DNA of 64,000 nucleotides. Origin: Bdellovibrionales bacterium. GTDB taxonomy: Bacteria > Bdellovibrionota > Bdellovibrionia > Bdellovibrionales > UBA1609. The notes beneath the pieces were generated by a model. It made no database searches and was not told where the DNA came from. It saw only the letters and a list, made by a program, of their open reading frames with translations. The DNA lies in NCBI GenBank assembly GCA_965199825.1, contig OZ241329.1:512001-576000 (forward strand). The letters are read 5' to 3'. A program made the position numbers and the translations under genes. This document shows positions 499 through 64,000 of this stretch, in pieces. Numbering within the stretch: position 1 is the stretch's first letter; the number at the start of each line of letters is the position of its first letter.

Positions 499-645
499 TC
501 GTGCCCGCTCCCAAGAAGATGATCGCGCTTGTAAACTCTGGCAGGACATTCAAATTCCTTTTAAGGATCGCATCTTATTTGTCGTGCCCGCTAGGTTTAG
601 ATTAAACAAGATTCTCACACCGCCGGAGTTATCATCGTGCCCGCT
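499..645 (+). repeat. Upstream motif array of HNH copy 1: three TCGTGCCCGCT
   Basis: Exact 11-mers starting at 499, 582 and 635, in gene orientation. Confidence 0.9.
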
Positions 646-835
646 TACCTAAATATTAATTAAATCCTTGACGACTTTTTTGATCCTTTTTTTAACGAGG
701 TAAATAGGCTTTACGACTTTCTTGATTTTTAAAGTCAAAAATTCCAATGATCTTTGTTTAGGGGCAAGAAAGTTGTACTTCTGATGATGCTACGAGTGCT
801 GTGGTTGGCAGCTGAAATCTCATTCTAAAATGTCG

Positions 836-860
836 TGGTAAACTCCTCCTTAAAGAGGAG
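836..860 (+). promoter_or_regulatory. Extended -10 (TGgTAAACT) overlapping an SD-sequestering hairpin ctcctc-cttaaa-gaggag
   Basis: Same arrangement upstream of HNH copies 2 and 3, with compensatory base changes. Confidence 0.7.
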
Positions 861-866
861 ATGTTT

Positions 867-1679
867 ATGAATCACGAAATCATTCACTTCAACGCGATGA
901 AAGCTGCCGATCGACACCGCCAAACAGAATTGCAACTGCTTAATTCTTTAGAAGAGGTTTGGAAAAACAGAACCTATTATAAATACGGATGTCGCTCATT
1001 GTTTGACTATTCAGTTTCAAAACTTGGGCTTTCTGAAGAAGTCGCGAGCATTTTTAATAAGCTGGCCAAAAAATTTACCGAAGTGCCTGAGCTTAAAACT
1101 GCGATTGCTTCAGGAAAAGTTTCGGTTTCGAAAATCAATCGAATCTGTAGCGTGGTGGACGAGAACAATGCTGAGTATTGGCTCAAGGTTGCTGAAGGCT
1201 CTAAAAGAAATTTGGAAAAACAAATCGCATTGGCTCATCCCGAAAAAGCTATACCTGAGCGGGCACGATTGAAAGCGGTGGGTGAAACATTGAGGGTAGA
1301 AATTAAATTTTCTGTCACCGAAGAAAAATTTGAATCACTCAAACGTGCGCAAGATCTTTTAAGCCAAAAACTAAGGCGACCAGCGACTCTCGAAGATTTA
1401 GTGAACGAAGCAACCCAGCTCTTTTTGGAAAAGCACGATCCACTAAAAAAATCGTGCCCGCCAACCAAAACCGAAACACTCAGTACTGTTGTAAAAAGAA
1501 AAGTGCATCACCAGTATCAAAGCCAATGCACTCATAGAGACGAAAAAGGCAATCGATGTACAGAACAGCGATTTCTTGACATCCATCACATCATTCCGCA
1601 ATCCGAAGGCGGCACACACACTTTAGAAAACCTCACATTGTTGTGCGCGGGCCACCATCGTGCCCATCACGTTCATTAA
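867..1679 (+). CDS. HNH endonuclease with N-terminal helical (DUF222-like) domain, copy 1
   Basis: C-terminal CTH..C..LDIHHIIP..GG..ENL..LC.GHH HNH/Zn motif. Start moved from 861 to 867 because of SD spacing and alignment with the paralogs. Confidence 0.9.
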   Translation: MNHEIIHFNAMKAADRHRQTELQLLNSLEEVWKNRTYYKYGCRSLFDYSVSKLGLSEEVASIFNKLAKKFTEVPELKTAIASGKVSVSKINRICSVVDENNAEYWLKVAEGSKRNLEKQIALAHPEKAIPERARLKAVGETLRVEIKFSVTEEKFESLKRAQDLLSQKLRRPATLEDLVNEATQLFLEKHDPLKKSCPPTKTETLSTVVKRKVHHQYQSQCTHRDEKGNRCTEQRFLDIHHIIPQSEGGTHTLENLTLLCAGHHRAHHVH

Positions 1680-21051: not shown

Positions 21052-21885
21052 TTAAGCTAAAAGTTTCATTGCCATTGAGGGCGCTGCATTGGCCTGAGCT
21101 AAAGTCGAAACGCTGGCATTCATAAGAATGTTGTTGCGTGATAACTCAGCTGTGGTTGCTGCAACATCTGTGTCACGAATTCGTGAATTCGCAGCAGAGA
21201 AGTTCTCAATAGATGTACTTAAATGCTCGTTTGTTGATTGCAATCGGTTTTGCAAAGCTCCAAGATTCGCGCGGTAACCGTTCACTTGACCTTGAGATTT
21301 TTCAAGAGTTTCAAGAGCCGAACGTGCGCCTTCTTTAGTTGAGTAATCAAAACCATCGATGTTCAAAGATTCTGTAGTCGCAATCTGATCACCTGATTTA
21401 AAAGCGATACGATCTTTATCGGGATCGTTATTGATATCCACTTGGAATTCAAATTTTCCGCCAGTACCGTCTAGCAAATTTGCATTTCCATAACGAGTGC
21501 TCTTAGCAATACGTTGAACTTCGTCTTTTAATTGACCAACTTCTTTTTGGATAAAACCACGTTCTTGATCACCAACAGTATCAGATGCAGCTTGAACACC
21601 AAGTTCTCGCATACGAGTTAATATGTTGCTGATTTCTCCAAGACCACCTTCAGCAACCTGAACCATGGACACACCATCGTTCGCGTTACGTTGTGCTTGT
21701 TGATATCCACGGATGGTGGATTTTAATCCTTCACTGATCGACAATCCAGCTGCATCATCTGCTGCTTTTGTGATCCGGCTACCTGAAGCCAATTGTGCAA
21801 AGCTGGTTTGCAAATTTCTTTGCGAAACACCTAAAGATTGTTGAGCTGCGATCGAGGCTACGTTCGTTGCTATTCTGAGTCCCAT
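21052..21885 (-). CDS. fliC: Flagellin 1
   Basis: MGLRIATN, SGSRIT.AADDAAGL, RANLGALQNRL, SRIRDTD. Start at 21885 with SD AAGGA. Confidence 0.97.
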   Translation of the reverse strand: MGLRIATNVASIAAQQSLGVSQRNLQTSFAQLASGSRITKAADDAAGLSISEGLKSTIRGYQQAQRNANDGVSMVQVAEGGLGEISNILTRMRELGVQAASDTVGDQERGFIQKEVGQLKDEVQRIAKSTRYGNANLLDGTGGKFEFQVDINNDPDKDRIAFKSGDQIATTESLNIDGFDYSTKEGARSALETLEKSQGQVNGYRANLGALQNRLQSTNEHLSTSIENFSAANSRIRDTDVAATTAELSRNNILMNASVSTLAQANAAPSMAMKLLA

Positions 21886-22082
21886 GTTACGTTCCTTTAA
21901 GTTTGAGGGCGTAATACGCCCCCATAAAAAATTGCGATTCCCTTCGCTGATTAAACACATTGGAGCGGGTATCTGGGACGCATGCGATAAGGTGGTAACG
22001 ATCCAATTTCACGGCAGTCACACCGCGCAAAAGTCTCTCCCCTATCGAACTGTCTTTAAGACCAGCTCAACTTCTGACTAGC

Positions 22083-22109
22083 TTTTCGGCGGGGTCTGTA
22101 AAGGCTAAA
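22083..22109 (-). promoter_or_regulatory. Sigma28 (FliA) promoter TTTA-N15-GCCGAAAA
   Basis: Matches the TAAA-N15-GCCGATAA consensus, about 200 nt upstream of flagellin 1. Confidence 0.65.
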
Positions 22110-22278
22110 GTCTCGTCGAGCAAATCTAGACCATGGTCTGTAAACAACTGGACTTTAGTGTGGATATTTGGACCAAAAGCGAGTCAAGTCGGGCTAGACT
22201 GCTGGAAATTGGTCGGGTGTGGCTGATGATTTGGGGTGGAGGGGTTTGGCACTGCGGTACTGATTTACTTTGATCGCT

Positions 22279-22547
22279 AGGCACAATGGAGTCTTGTCGC
22301 GTCTGGGCACGATCATTTCTATCGGCATGGTGATGGGCAGGATGGTGTCTCACCTTGTTTGGGCACGATTTATCTTGTCGCTGAAGTGATGGGCACGATC
22401 ACTCCATTCTTTCGGCATGGTGATGGGCACAATTCATTCTGTTAGCTAAGTCATGGGCACGATAATGGCCTGCCTCGTCCGGGACGATGATGTCTCGCCT
22501 CTTTTGGGCACGATCACTCCATCCTCTCGGCAAAGTGGTGGGCACGA
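22279..22547 (-). repeat. Downstream degenerate tandem array of HNH copy 2 (about 10 motif units, period 25-34 bp)
   Basis: GGGCACGA or variants at 22279, 22305, 22335, 22361, 22391, 22425, 22455, ~22480, 22506, 22540. Confidence 0.9.
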
Positions 22548-23332
22548 TGATGTCCCGAACAAAAAAGAGTTAAGTTTTCTTCAGCATCCGATCCACCCTT
22601 CGATCTTGGTACTATATGATGAATATCTAAATGCCGCCGCTGGGTGCAGCGTATTCCATTTTCATTTACATAAGTGCATTGGCTGTGATGTTTGTGATGA
22701 ATCTTTCGCTTTACCGCCATTTTAGAAGCCGCTTTCTCTGGGCACGATTTCTGAAGCGGATCATTTTTCAACAACCACAAATCTACAGCCTCAGTCAGCA
22801 CATCTTCAATCGATGCCGCTCGTTTTAATTTCTGACTCATTAAATCTTGAGCACGTTGAAACGCTTTATGTTTTTCTTCGGTAAGCGAAAAAGTAATCTG
22901 CACGCGCTCGGTCGTGCCTACACTGCAGTACCTTGATTTTTCTTTCAGTGCTTTTTCGGAATGTGCCTTAGCAATTTCTTTTTCAAGTTGGCGTTTTGTG
23001 CCTTTTGCGATGTCGATCCATGAGGTCGCATTTTCCTCAGTGATCACCGAAACCAATCGGTTAGCTTTGGAAGCCGAGAGCTCACCAAGTTCCATTTCTT
23101 TTTTGAGTTGTGGCACTTCGGTAAATTTCTTGGCGATCTTATTGTAAATGCTCGCGAGCTCTTCGGACAATTTCAGTTGTGTCGTTGAATATTCAAATAA
23201 TGAACGACAGCCAAATTGATAATAACTTTTGTTGATCCAAACTTGCTCTAAGGCTTTTAGCAATTCGATTTCGGCTTTGCGATGAGAATCTGCGGCGCGG
23301 ACCGCATTCTTGTGAAGAGTGAGATGATCCAT
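22514..23332 (-). CDS. HNH endonuclease, copy 2
   Basis: Full-length paralog of 867..1679, LDIHH.VP...GG...ENL..FC.GHH. Confidence 0.9.
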   Translation of the reverse strand: MDHLTLHKNAVRAADSHRKAEIELLKALEQVWINKSYYQFGCRSLFEYSTTQLKLSEELASIYNKIAKKFTEVPQLKKEMELGELSASKANRLVSVITEENATSWIDIAKGTKRQLEKEIAKAHSEKALKEKSRYCSVGTTERVQITFSLTEEKHKAFQRAQDLMSQKLKRAASIEDVLTEAVDLWLLKNDPLQKSCPEKAASKMAVKRKIHHKHHSQCTYVNENGIRCTQRRHLDIHHIVPRSKGGSDAEENLTLFCSGHHRAHHFAERME

Positions 23333-23338
23333 AAATTA

Positions 23339-23364
23339 CTCCTGTTTAGAGCAGAAGTGTAACA
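23339..23364 (-). promoter_or_regulatory. Extended -10 (TGtTACACT) with SD-sequestering hairpin cttctg-ctctaaa-caggag
   Basis: Positional homolog of 836-860. Confidence 0.7.
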
Positions 23365-23565
23365 TGGGTTTTTGAAACTGCGATATAAGGTGGGCGCGAT
23401 CGGAATTAACATCTTCGATTTTTGGCATGTCTGTCGGCGCTAGCGACCGTTTGACAACTAAAGATAACAAAAAATGATTAATCTGCGGTTCAAAGCCAAA
23501 CACAGCCAAAAATTACCGCGATAAATTTGCGTCAATATTTAATTTGAGAAAACTAATTTAGCTGT

Positions 23566-23715
23566 GGGCAAGATCGTGAATAAAAAATGTCGTACTCCCA
23601 AAGTCATCATTTCTTTTTACTAAAAACTGCTATGGGCACGATCAGAAACTAAGAATATCGCAAACTAGAAATCCACCAGAAGACGTATACCATAGTTCGC
23701 AAAATCCGGGCACGA
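23566..23715 (-). repeat. Upstream motif array of HNH copy 2
   Basis: GGGCAAGA at 23566, GGGCACGA at 23634 and 23708, plus GGGCGCGA at 23392. Confidence 0.8.
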
Positions 23716-23766
23716 TCGCAATCAAGAACAATACCGCCACTACCATCGCTTATAAACAACAAAAAT

Positions 23767-24444
23767 CTAAAGAAACGTCGCTGTAGTTGGGCATGTCACA
23801 ATCGAAACCATTCCACGAATATGACCAATGTCATCGCGGATATAATTCCAATCCCATTTGACGTCGAGAGCGGCATTGTTGGCGGCGCGGATACGCATGT
23901 AATAAGGCATTGCTTGTTGGCCGGAGAGAATCATCGTTCTGATAAACGATTGAAGTTTAATTCCTTCGGCGGGATCAAATAAATAATCCCATAAGAATTT
24001 TGGCGTGCGTAGGTCGTTTGCGGTTAAGCCAATGGTGTCTAAAGTTTTTTTGTTTGCAAAACAAATTTCGCCATTGGTTTTGCTTGCGAGAAATCCGACA
24101 TGGATCAAATCTAGGAAGGCATGGGTGCAGCCTAAATCCAAAGTTTCGAGCGATGTCTTGTCGCGATCGCGAAGCAAGTAACAAGGCGGAGTATTAAAAT
24201 GCCTGGCAAAAGTGCGAATGGTTGAGGCTTTGATATCGATTTGACCGGCCTCAATTTTTTGTAAATGACGATGGCTTAATCCAACTGCATTTGCTAAATC
24301 CACTTGGCGTTCACGTTTTCTTTGACGAAACTGCTTAATCCAGCTCGCTATGATGCCTGGAAGTAGACGTTCGGAATCGAAGAGTTGATCAAAGTCTTTA
24401 GTTTTCAAGCCATTTTTTTTGCCTCTCAATAAACAAAATGACAA
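23767..24444 (-). CDS. XRE-family HTH regulator with C-terminal PAS domain
   Basis: R...Q.DLA..VGLS.RHLQKIEAG HTH, then G.I.FAN...G...DL and D..G.I.G PAS features. Confidence 0.8.
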   Translation of the reverse strand: MSFCLLRGKKNGLKTKDFDQLFDSERLLPGIIASWIKQFRQRKRERQVDLANAVGLSHRHLQKIEAGQIDIKASTIRTFARHFNTPPCYLLRDRDKTSLETLDLGCTHAFLDLIHVGFLASKTNGEICFANKKTLDTIGLTANDLRTPKFLWDYLFDPAEGIKLQSFIRTMILSGQQAMPYYMRIRAANNAALDVKWDWNYIRDDIGHIRGMVSIVTCPTTATFL

Positions 24445-24486
24445 GAGATCTTCTCAATACTCGAGGAAAACGCCATGTATTGCCGC

Positions 24487-24521
24487 AAAAAAAACCCTGG
24501 GCGCAGTAAAGCCACCCAGGG
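24487..24521 (-). terminator. Rho-independent terminator of flagellin 2
   Basis: ccctggg/cccaggg stem followed by T8 on the minus strand. Confidence 0.8.
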
Positions 24522-24564
24522 CGGGCTTTTGAGATCATGTGGGCCACGATCCCAAACTAAATAA

Positions 24565-25392
24565 TTATTGAAGTAAACGAAGTGCTGCGGCTCCGTTGGA
24601 ATTTGCCTGCGCCAATACACCAATGGAAGCTTGGTGCAAAATATTGGCTGAAGCCGCCTCGGCAGATTCGTACGCAATGTCGGTATCGCTAATCCGTGAT
24701 TTTGCAGCAGAGAGATTTTCGTACTGCACATCAAGGTTACTTGTTGTTGATTGCAGTCGACTTTGTACCGCACCAAAATCAGCGCGCATTTTTCCTAATT
24801 TATCCAACGCATCGTCAACCGAGTCGAGTGTGTCGCGAGCACCTGATTTTGAATCGAGCGAAATCGATGAAATTCCTAAAGCCGAATTGGTTGCGTCTGC
24901 TTTCACGCTGCTCTTGATAATGTTCTCATCACCACCGTAAGGGCCCACGTGATATTCTAAAGCCGATCCTGAGCCATCGAGTAATTTTTGATTTCCAAAT
25001 CGGGTGGATTTAGCGATTCGCTGTGACTCATCGATCAACTGTTTTGCTTCTTGATTTAAAAATCCGCGCTCTTTATCTGAGACCGTATCACTTGCGGATT
25101 GAACACCAAGTTCACGCAGTCGAATAAGAATATTATTAATTTCATTCAAGCCCCCTTCAGAGGTTTGAATCAATGATTGAGCATTGTAGGCGTTATTGCG
25201 TGCTTGCTTTACTCCCACAATTTGTCCGCGCAAATTTTCTGATATCGACAAACCGGCAGCATCATCTGATGCCTTTACGATTCGTGATCCCGAAGCAAGA
25301 GCTTCTTGTGAATGCTCTAAGCGCTCCTGACTTTTGCCAAGTTGTCTCTGCGCACTGATCGATGCCAGATTCGTATTAATTCTTAAGCCCAT
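24565..25392 (-). CDS. fliC: Flagellin 2
   Basis: MGLRINTN, SDDAAGL, RADFGAVQSRL, SRISDTD. Confidence 0.97.
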   Translation of the reverse strand: MGLRINTNLASISAQRQLGKSQERLEHSQEALASGSRIVKASDDAAGLSISENLRGQIVGVKQARNNAYNAQSLIQTSEGGLNEINNILIRLRELGVQSASDTVSDKERGFLNQEAKQLIDESQRIAKSTRFGNQKLLDGSGSALEYHVGPYGGDENIIKSSVKADATNSALGISSISLDSKSGARDTLDSVDDALDKLGKMRADFGAVQSRLQSTTSNLDVQYENLSAAKSRISDTDIAYESAEAASANILHQASIGVLAQANSNGAAALRLLQ

Positions 25393-52073: not shown

Positions 52074-52141
52074 GCGCGGGTTTGCGCATTGCCTGCTTTT
52101 CAGTTCTGAGCTCAATTTGTTAAGATGTAGCATACCTTCGT

Positions 52142-52951
52142 TCACTGCCTCTGGTGATGGGCACGATGGTGCCCCGAACACAGCAAAGTGAGATTCTCCA
52201 AAGTGTCAGGTCCACCCAATGACTTCGGAATTATGTGATGAATATCTAAATGCCGTCGCGCCGAACACCGTTCGCCATTTTCATCAATATGGGTGCACTG
52301 TCCTCCGTGCTGCTGATGAAGCTGACGTTTGATTGTAAGCTTGGATACACTCTGAGGCGGGCACGATTTTTTAATCGGATCTAATTTTTCCAACAATAAT
52401 TGTGTTGCCTGATCATGAACATCTTGAATAGTTGCAGCCCGTTTAAGTTTTTGGCTCAGCAAATCTTGTGCGCGTTGAATGTCGCTATATTTTTCTTCGC
52501 TCACCGCATAAGAAATTTTAATCAAAGTTGTTTCACCAACTTGTTTGTATTGCGCAAGCTCAGGAATCGCCGTCTCAGGTTTGACCTTTGCAATTTCTTT
52601 TTCAAGATTCCGTTTTGTGGTTTTGGCTTTAGCAAACCAGTCGAGAGCATTTTCTTGAGTGATCACACTCACAAGCCGATTTGCTTTTGACACCGAGAGC
52701 TCGCCCGACGCAATTTGGGTTTTAAGAGCTGGAACTTCGGTAAATTTTTTTGCGAGCTTATTAAAGATGCTCGCAAGTTCTTCTGACATTTTTAATTTTT
52801 TTGTTGAGTATTCAAAAAGCGAATTGCAATCAAACTTATAATAACTTTTGTTGCGCCACACTTGCTCAAGCGCATTGAGCAAAGCCATTTCGGTAGCTCG
52901 GTGGTTGGCGGCAGCAATCACTGCCTCGTTATGAATTTTTTGATGGCTCAT
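52142..52951 (-). CDS. HNH endonuclease, copy 3
   Basis: Full-length paralog, LDIHHIIP..GG.D..ENL..LCSGHH. Confidence 0.9.
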   Translation of the reverse strand: MSHQKIHNEAVIAAANHRATEMALLNALEQVWRNKSYYKFDCNSLFEYSTKKLKMSEELASIFNKLAKKFTEVPALKTQIASGELSVSKANRLVSVITQENALDWFAKAKTTKRNLEKEIAKVKPETAIPELAQYKQVGETTLIKISYAVSEEKYSDIQRAQDLLSQKLKRAATIQDVHDQATQLLLEKLDPIKKSCPPQSVSKLTIKRQLHQQHGGQCTHIDENGERCSARRHLDIHHIIPKSLGGPDTLENLTLLCSGHHRAHHQRQ

Positions 52952-52957
52952 AAATAT

Positions 52958-52981
52958 CTCCTATTTATAGGGAGTTTAACA
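52958..52981 (-). promoter_or_regulatory. Extended -10 (TGtTAAACT) with SD-sequestering hairpin ctcc(c)ta-taaa-taggag
   Basis: Positional homolog of 836-860 and 23339-23364. Confidence 0.7.
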
Positions 52982-53178
52982 TGACTTTTTTAGAGGGGCC
53001 TTTTGATGGACTCATTGATGATTTTTAATAACCTGTTTTTGATTTAATATTTGCATAGAGAAGCGCGCCTTGAGGATGAGTGTTCAAAACACAATCGACT
53101 GATTCAGTTTTTGCAACTGAAGGCATTTTTTCGCATTGAAAAATGCGTCAATCTTTTTTTCGGGAGATTATGAATTTT

Positions 53179-53407
53179 GTGGGCACGATCATTTTAGATC
53201 AGAAACTACGGTGGGCACGATCATTTTTAAATCAGAGATCTAACGAAAACTCCGAAGGTGTTTGGTTTTTGTCTAGGGTTAAGCGGTGGGTAAACCTAAA
53301 ACAAAACTGGGCACGACAATTTCTAGATTAAAATTCTAACCAAATTTCCGACGGTGTTTGGTTTTTATTTAGGTTAAAACTTGATCGAGGCTAAAGAGCG
53401 GGCACGA
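53179..53407 (-). repeat. Upstream motif array of HNH copy 3, with 32-bp and ~91-96-bp duplications
   Basis: GGGCACGA at 53181, 53213, 53309 and 53400, with duplicated flanks (tccga.ggtgtttggttttt). Confidence 0.9.
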
Positions 53408-63424: not shown

Positions 63425-63651
63425 GGGCACGATTTCTTCTCGAGCAAAAAAGAGTGTAAACTGATTGTTTCTGCAATCACGACACAACGTTAACCTTGTC
63501 TGGGCACGATCACTCCATTTTGTCGATGACGTGATGGGCTTGATGGTGTCTCAGCTCGTCCCTTCACGATCACTCCATTCTGTCGGCACGAAGATGTCTC
63601 GCCTTGTCTGGTTACGATCACTGAATTCTATCGCTGAAGTGATGGGCACGA
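63425..63651 (-). repeat. Downstream degenerate array of HNH copy 4
   Basis: GGGCACGA or variants at 63425, 63502, 63536, 63562, 63584, 63610, 63644, same unit types as 22279-22547. Confidence 0.9.
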
Positions 63652-64000
63652 TGATGACCCGAACAAAAAAGAGTCAGATTGTCTTCAGTATCTGTTCCGC
63701 CCTTTGATTTTGGAATTATATGATGAATATCTAAATGCCGCCGCTGGGTGCAGCGTATTCCATTTTCATCTACATAAGTGCATTGGCTGTGATGTTTGTG
63801 ATGAATCTTTCGCTTTACCGCCATTTTAGAAGCCGCTTTTTCTGGGCACGATTTTTTGAGTGGATCATGTTTGGACAACCACAAATCTACAGCCTCAGTC
63901 AGCACATCTTCAATCGATGCCGCTCGTTTTAATTTCTGACTCATTAAATCTTGAGCACGTTGAAACGCTTTATGCTTTTCTTCGGTGAGCGAAAAAGTGA
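63618..64000 (-). CDS. HNH endonuclease, copy 4 (5' part beyond the window)
   Basis: Near-identical to the 3' half of copy 2 (about 25 mismatches in ~350 nt by eye), open to the window end. Confidence 0.9.
   Translation of the reverse strand, partial: TFSLTEEKHKAFQRAQDLMSQKLKRAASIEDVLTEAVDLWLSKHDPLKKSCPEKAASKMAVKRKIHHKHHSQCTYVDENGIRCTQRRHLDIHHIIPKSKGGTDTEDNLTLFCSGHHRAHHFSDRIQ

Follow-up and report, generated by a model that had tools for sequence, protein, structure and literature searches.

In this study, we report a repeated mobile unit found in a stretch of 64,000 nucleotides (hereafter, the window) of a Bdellovibrionales bacterium (assembly GCA_965199825.1, contig OZ241329.1, positions 512,001 to 576,000). 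Each unit consists of a gene for a protein with an HNH nuclease domain accompanied by copies of the 8-mer TCGTGCCC. The unit is very probably mobile, and we lean towards considering its loci as copies of an undescribed insertion sequence (IS)-like element of roughly 1.1-1.7 kb, mobilised by its own helix-turn-helix (HTH)-HNH protein acting on its own repeated site. Its spread is likely to follow a yet undescribed mechanism, because other bacteria have related units that encode no known transposase and have nonetheless moved. The literature searches made gave no description of this element.

Exact matches to TCGTGCCC number 30 in the window, versus 1.25 expected and a maximum of 4 in 100 shuffles. 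The original prediction, made from the letters of the window, placed about 25 of them around four HNH loci, one being reversed, and about 5 elsewhere. The exact count is 25 (6, 9, 6, and 4 at the loci here named A to D) plus 5 (2588, 16160, 27555, 34502, and 55270), and 24 of the 25 run in gene orientation, with the sole reversed copy at 1261. A genome-wide count, suggested together with that prediction, gave 522 copies in 2.84 Mb, where order-3 and order-4 Markov models predict 55-67; together with its overlap, TCGTGCCC is the most over-represented 8-mer of the genome. The tblastn search revealed 28 paralogous HNH loci, and no other paralog family in the genome is as large (27 open reading frames, ORFs). 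The motif is enriched at them: 222 copies (3.3/kb) are no more than 800 bp from one of the loci, and the other 300 are farther away (0.11/kb). Among the latter, 225 sit in clusters, mostly tandem arrays of 16-20-bp units; stand-alone arrays of this kind are found in nine places, with unit sequences common to distant arrays. The longer site around the 8-mer has the consensus TRTCGTGCCCRC, which looks like an asymmetric form of the palindromic TGTC-N4-GACA site of the family. Given that the 8-mer is the core of such a longer site, the term iteron used in the original prediction gives way to that of an operator or end site of a ParB-like domain, which fits better, while the proposal of a selfish, mobile unit associated with its own motif is supported: neither outcome set out as refuting it was obtained, since the motif is enriched at the loci and empty sites exist.

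Such empty sites were revealed when filled loci were compared with related genomes, as had also been proposed. Copy C lies at the convergent mlaD/dciA junction, where none of the 19 fetched relatives has an HNH match within 1.5 kb; mlaD and dciA are adjacent in four of them and separated by 0.9-1.2 kb of other sequence in eight. In genus g59, one site (L236) carries the element in genomes G126 and G190, whereas all 12 remaining fetched loci are empty. The neighbours are the same in G169, which differs by 1,621 bp, and the last codons of the gene align with the host flank. Another relative, G017, has four elements, 1,737-1,757 bp long, which end in 26-bp inverted repeats with TG...CA termini; the protein they encode is homologous over its full length (probability 100%, 26% identity). 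Target duplications of 5 bp flank two of the four and are absent from the other two; the two copies bearing them are 99.2% identical and occupy different sites. Four other genomes of the genus of G017 showed no match to this element. The G017 elements L211-L213 lie in or beside GTCATTCC...GGAATCCAG palindromic repeats, and similar palindromes occur inside the element; CGTC repeats, which are similar in type, are reported to have no dedicated transposase (PMC3733652). In the genome studied here, the ends are ragged and no target duplication was detectable in 25 copies; no empty form appeared in the reads of run X1. Relatives do have terminal inverted repeats, none of which had been noticed in the window in the original prediction. 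Some copies are truncated or lack a start codon, and C-termini and stop codons are supplied by flanking DNA. Additionally, two Peredibacter strains are described (PMC13147790) as having 10 and 13 HNH genes, 6 of the sites being common to both strains; these genes may belong to the present family.

The four predicted paralogous ORFs were all present. Copy A lies on the forward strand, with an upstream array at 499..642 (TCGTGCCC at 499, 582, and 635), a TTGAC plus T-tract box at 668..681, located 165 bp before the extended -10, and an A-tract, extended -10 (hexamer at 839) and Shine-Dalgarno sequence at 826..860. Its gene (867..1679; ORF start 861 or 867) encodes 270 amino acids (aa) and has three internal motifs: the reversed one at 1261..1268 (reverse strand, in E-R-A-R codons), a linker motif at 1452..1459 (K-S-C-P codons) and a terminal motif at 1658..1665 (H-R-A-H codons). 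The other copies lie on the reverse strand. Copy B has a 272-aa gene at 22514..23332 with motifs at 22740 and 22540, a downstream mosaic array at 22305..22513 with five exact motifs, and a leader at 23345..23715 (extended -10 at 23361, TTGAC box at 23535, upstream motifs at 23634 and 23708). Copy C has a 269-aa gene at 52142..52951 with motifs at 52359 and 52159, and a leader at 52965..53407 (extended -10 at 52978, TTGAC box at 53151, motifs at 53181, 53213, 53309, and 53400). The two internal motifs predicted for each complete ORF are right for B and C and fall one short for A; the extended -10 was found as predicted in all three. The three complete proteins match the Pfam HNH profile above its cut-off. 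Of copy D, the 3' half (from 63618) and downstream array occupy 63425..64000, the gene running beyond the window to about 64430 in window numbering; it has ATA where the start ATG would be, and upstream motifs at 64670 and 64800 in the same numbering. A 9.7-kb contig piece of run X1, which may be the source sample, agrees with copy C and its array with 0 differences, and therefore these are not an assembly artefact. As to the surroundings, copy B shares the interval between two flagellin genes, adjacent to fliD, with an HTH gene (21052-25392). A dispersed repeat, GTGAACGAAGGTA, follows copy C directly (52120-52135) and has 106 sites on the main contig, 74 of them inside ORFs; it adjoins 4 of 23 TCGTGCCC arrays (0.01 expected each). 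Another repeat, ACACCGCCGGAG / CTCCGAAGGTGT, is found at 617-630 and at about 35 sites in the genome, often as an inverted pair inside arrays, and 10 of the 35 are near HNH loci.

The general layout of the copies is 1 to 26 motifs, the TTGAC plus T-tract box, a spacer, the A-tract with the extended -10, the Shine-Dalgarno sequence and the gene. The distance from TTGAC to the -10 was 165-168 bp in all 24 copies (of 28) in which both boxes were found, the value nearest 165 among those between 100 and 260 being chosen by the script. Although the length is kept, the spacer sequence has diverged between copies; its composition consists of T-tracts followed by A-tracts. Throughout the genome, 22 of 34 sites with an extended -10 and Shine-Dalgarno sequence, counted without one-by-one matching to elements, have TTGAC at 155-172 bp (background chance 0.017 each). 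In relatives, the distance was 166 bp in 4 of 4 G017 copies, 168 bp in 7 of 7 loci of a record titled Cloacimonadota and 181-183 bp in a G015 subfamily; many other loci of relatives yielded no value with the search pattern used. The leader showed no conserved RNA fold or hairpin (25 copies, mean z -0.17), and an Rfam search of four loci gave no match. With respect to the borders, the sequence common to paralogs 88-96% identical begins a little to the left of the last upstream motif and stops 4-15 bp beyond the terminal motif. In 23 of 25 copies, the 60 bp to the left of the outermost motif are rich in G and T (skew +0.35, whereas 833 control windows gave -0.01).

Selection on the motif acts at the DNA level, as seen from synonymous codon positions in the gene. 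In a codon alignment of 24 genes (of the 28, four that were truncated or not in frame were left out), the codons of the terminal motif are fixed in 24/24, 24/24, and 23/24, while the other four- and six-fold columns average 0.51-0.53. The linker motif differs in orientation between clades, being forward in one and reversed in a second. It must be considered that the internal copies fall on conserved residues (HRAH) and that slippage alone can grow tandem arrays, so that the motif might be a by-product of conserved codons and ordinary slippage with no role in the element. This is very improbable: its synonymous positions are fixed while others vary, the site changes strand and encoded peptide between clades, and linker and upstream copies co-vary across lineages.

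The HNH gene itself is under strong purifying selection (ratio of nonsynonymous to synonymous substitutions, dN/dS, of 0.056-0.115 in 8 of 9 pairs). This would also be expected of a domesticated host gene family that serves in defence or prey-DNA degradation and has grown by duplication; the motif would then be a regulon operator. In this regard, the family is chromosomal only, with no tblastn match in the phage and plasmid collections, and nucleases are abundant in predators (PMC13147790). Nevertheless, domestication is unlikely, and is largely refuted already by the empty sites: insertion sites are lineage-specific, the distribution is patchy (61 of 117 good genomes of the order), C-termini and stop codons come from flanking DNA, there are truncated or start-less copies, and target duplications occur.

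The pairing of gene and site is seen elsewhere in the order as well, and the family numbers 6,121 clusters (50% identity) at E < 1e-30. The linker sequence is repeated upstream of its own gene, by 14 or more bases with one mismatch, at 30 of the 89 loci in two sets taken together and at 6 of their 360 controls: 16/52 versus 3/212 in the first, which left out 10 loci without anchors and one indexing artefact, and 14/37 versus 3/148 in the second, which skipped 8 loci and includes one duplicate of an earlier locus. Family sites are 14-16 bp long and lineage-specific, many being TGTC-N4-GACA, and the site type tracks the predicted recognition helix in a direct comparison, made without a tree, of lineages that are kin. 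The site of G073, CCTGTCGTGCGACAGG, has TGTCGTGC in common with the motif of this genome; it gave 90 matches (palindromic ones counted twice) versus 0 for a reversed control, clustering at elements whose ends are ragged and whose long mosaic flanks are inverted. Similarly, a distant G015 subfamily (L073, L068-L076) has long mosaic repeats, inverted, on both flanks, and at L068 and L074 the linker site is copied just after the stop codon.

The protein is predicted from structure models to comprise a ParB/KorB-like HTH domain (about aa 16-125) and a C-terminal HNH domain (about 204-270), between which the copy A model has a beta-hairpin and two helices at 132-190 followed by a linker. Only a single helix is modelled ahead of the HTH, so there is no N-terminal CTPase domain. 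As in ParB/KorB/Spo0J, the predicted HTH fold goes with 14-16-bp palindromic sites with a 4-bp core, comparable to parS or operators; unlike them, the HNH is fused behind the HTH, no ParA gene is adjacent and there are many copies. No Pfam ParB match was found in the protein homologs searched. The DUF222/REP13E12-like resemblance put forward in the original prediction was not borne out at the level of Pfam, since the three complete window proteins have no DUF222 (PF02720) match at E 0.1. Among relatives, 1 of 46 aligned homologs matches (P0048, E 4.6e-7), the G017 member reaches E 0.16, and in one Atlas cluster of distant members the share is 21%. The relationship of the family to REP13E12/DUF222 is distant and falls short of Pfam membership. 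The REP13E12/DUF222-HNH genes of Mycobacterium tuberculosis are called insertion elements in the parts available of PMC3381160 and PMC13157036, in which no description of a cognate motif, end arrays, a fixed spacer or a spread mechanism was met. Both groups are multicopy dispersed genes with a helical N-terminus and a C-terminal HNH, the window proteins differing in their length of about 270 aa and their lack of a DUF222 match.

No Y1 match was found in the proteins of the family, and no DDE match in the single ORF of the element (Pfam, NCBIfam). The genome contains, however, 17 separate Y1 (HUH) genes, the best candidates for a helper in trans. This leads to the possible, less probable explanation that the unit is non-autonomous: a Y1 or DDE transposase would act in trans, the HNH protein would be a retention or homing factor, as TnpB and IscB are, the motif would be an autorepression operator, and the arrays would arise by slippage. 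The same upstream-array layout is seen in 14 of the 17 Y1 genes (1-6 direct copies, ATGACATTGCCCC type), for instance at 247000-247536, 423043-423576, and 853148-853684 of the main contig, which are TIRYT-like with direct upstream arrays; one TCGTGCCC array lies directly upstream of a Y1 gene. Also in its favour are a six-copy family of 308 aa (2255216-2256142 of the main contig and five paralogs), which reads as a DDE/IS1-like transposase, the TG...CA ends and 5-bp duplications of G017, and the presence of the motif both upstream of and in the gene, which is the classic repression-loop layout. On the other hand, Y1 and HNH loci bear separate motifs: 38 of 46 copies of the TGACAYTGCCC-type motif are near Y1 genes and none near HNH loci. 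The Y1 genes have their own motif, and therefore a one-enzyme-one-motif pairing is shown. To our knowledge, Y1 enzymes of the IS200/IS605 type make no target duplications, and the leader has no conserved hairpin. In G017, the end sequence marks only the four complete HNH elements, a fifth partial one and four other single sites (three inspected by eye for a transposase element), and a search for an rve domain found none. As a separate observation, three more distant Y1 genes have the motif ACCTTCGCTC upstream.

In an element mobilised by its own HTH-HNH protein, we infer the steps of binding, nicking, insertion and array growth as follows. The protein, probably as a dimer, would bind the 14-16-bp site through the HTH domain and, bound at left-end, linker and right-end sites, would pull the ends together; the fixed 165-168-bp bent spacer may be part of this end complex and of a repression switch for a toxic gene. 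The HNH domain would nick or cut DNA close to the bound sites as well as at the target, leaving polymerase and ligase of the host to finish a copy-in insertion. Nick-and-resynthesis at motif copies could give rise to the ragged ends, G/T-biased filler, mosaic end arrays and stand-alone 16-20-bp arrays.

By analogy, the element would work like a REPtron or TIRtron with HNH replacing HUH. As described in PMC3333891 and PMC3733652, these systems (RAYT/TnpA-REP, TIRYT) have a nuclease gene between variable mosaic arrays of its own repeat, which is also amplified elsewhere. The present gene is likewise flanked by cognate arrays, its repeat is found elsewhere, and G073 and G015 have the long inverted mosaic flanks; the central gene is HNH instead of Y1 HUH, the Y1 genes being separate loci. 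With IscB/OMEGA and IS200/IS605, a selfish nuclease and small element are shared, and the similarity is confined to the HNH (34.8 bits, range 30-42, versus a cut-off of 175); there is no RuvC match, Rfam match, conserved leader RNA fold or TnpA in the unit. Compared with DDE insertion sequences, no DDE transposase is present, and inverted ends with a duplication are seen in 2 of 4 G017 copies, while no duplication was detected in 25 copies here. Free-standing HNH homing endonucleases and nickases also combine a DNA-binding domain with HNH, and the related minimal HNH domains described in PMC3592412 nick in a site- and strand-specific manner. Unlike homing genes, which disrupt their target, the element spreads to many intergenic sites that are not allelic and itself contains many copies of its site; its dispersal to 28 unrelated sites speaks against allelic homing.

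There is about an even chance that these loci represent a large unrecognised class of bacterial transposons, with a ParB-like HTH-HNH as sole protein, a lineage-specific site co-evolving with the recognition helix and seeded as tandem arrays through the genome, and no DDE, HUH, recombinase or reverse-transcriptase chemistry. If so, the way in which the distantly related REP13E12/DUF222 repeats spread, for which a mechanism is missing, may be the same. The transposition chemistries known to us form a short list from which HNH is absent. Each family member is a ready protein-site pair, because the predicted target is written in its own gene. Such pairs offer a direct test of HNH repeat spread and a natural set of compact site-specific nucleases, and the family may be where some so far unexplained short tandem arrays of bacterial genomes come from. 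Finally, the small contigs C2-C5, which may be foreign, have no motif, and C2 bears a reverse transcriptase domain at 1384-1863 in a 1,291-aa frame.
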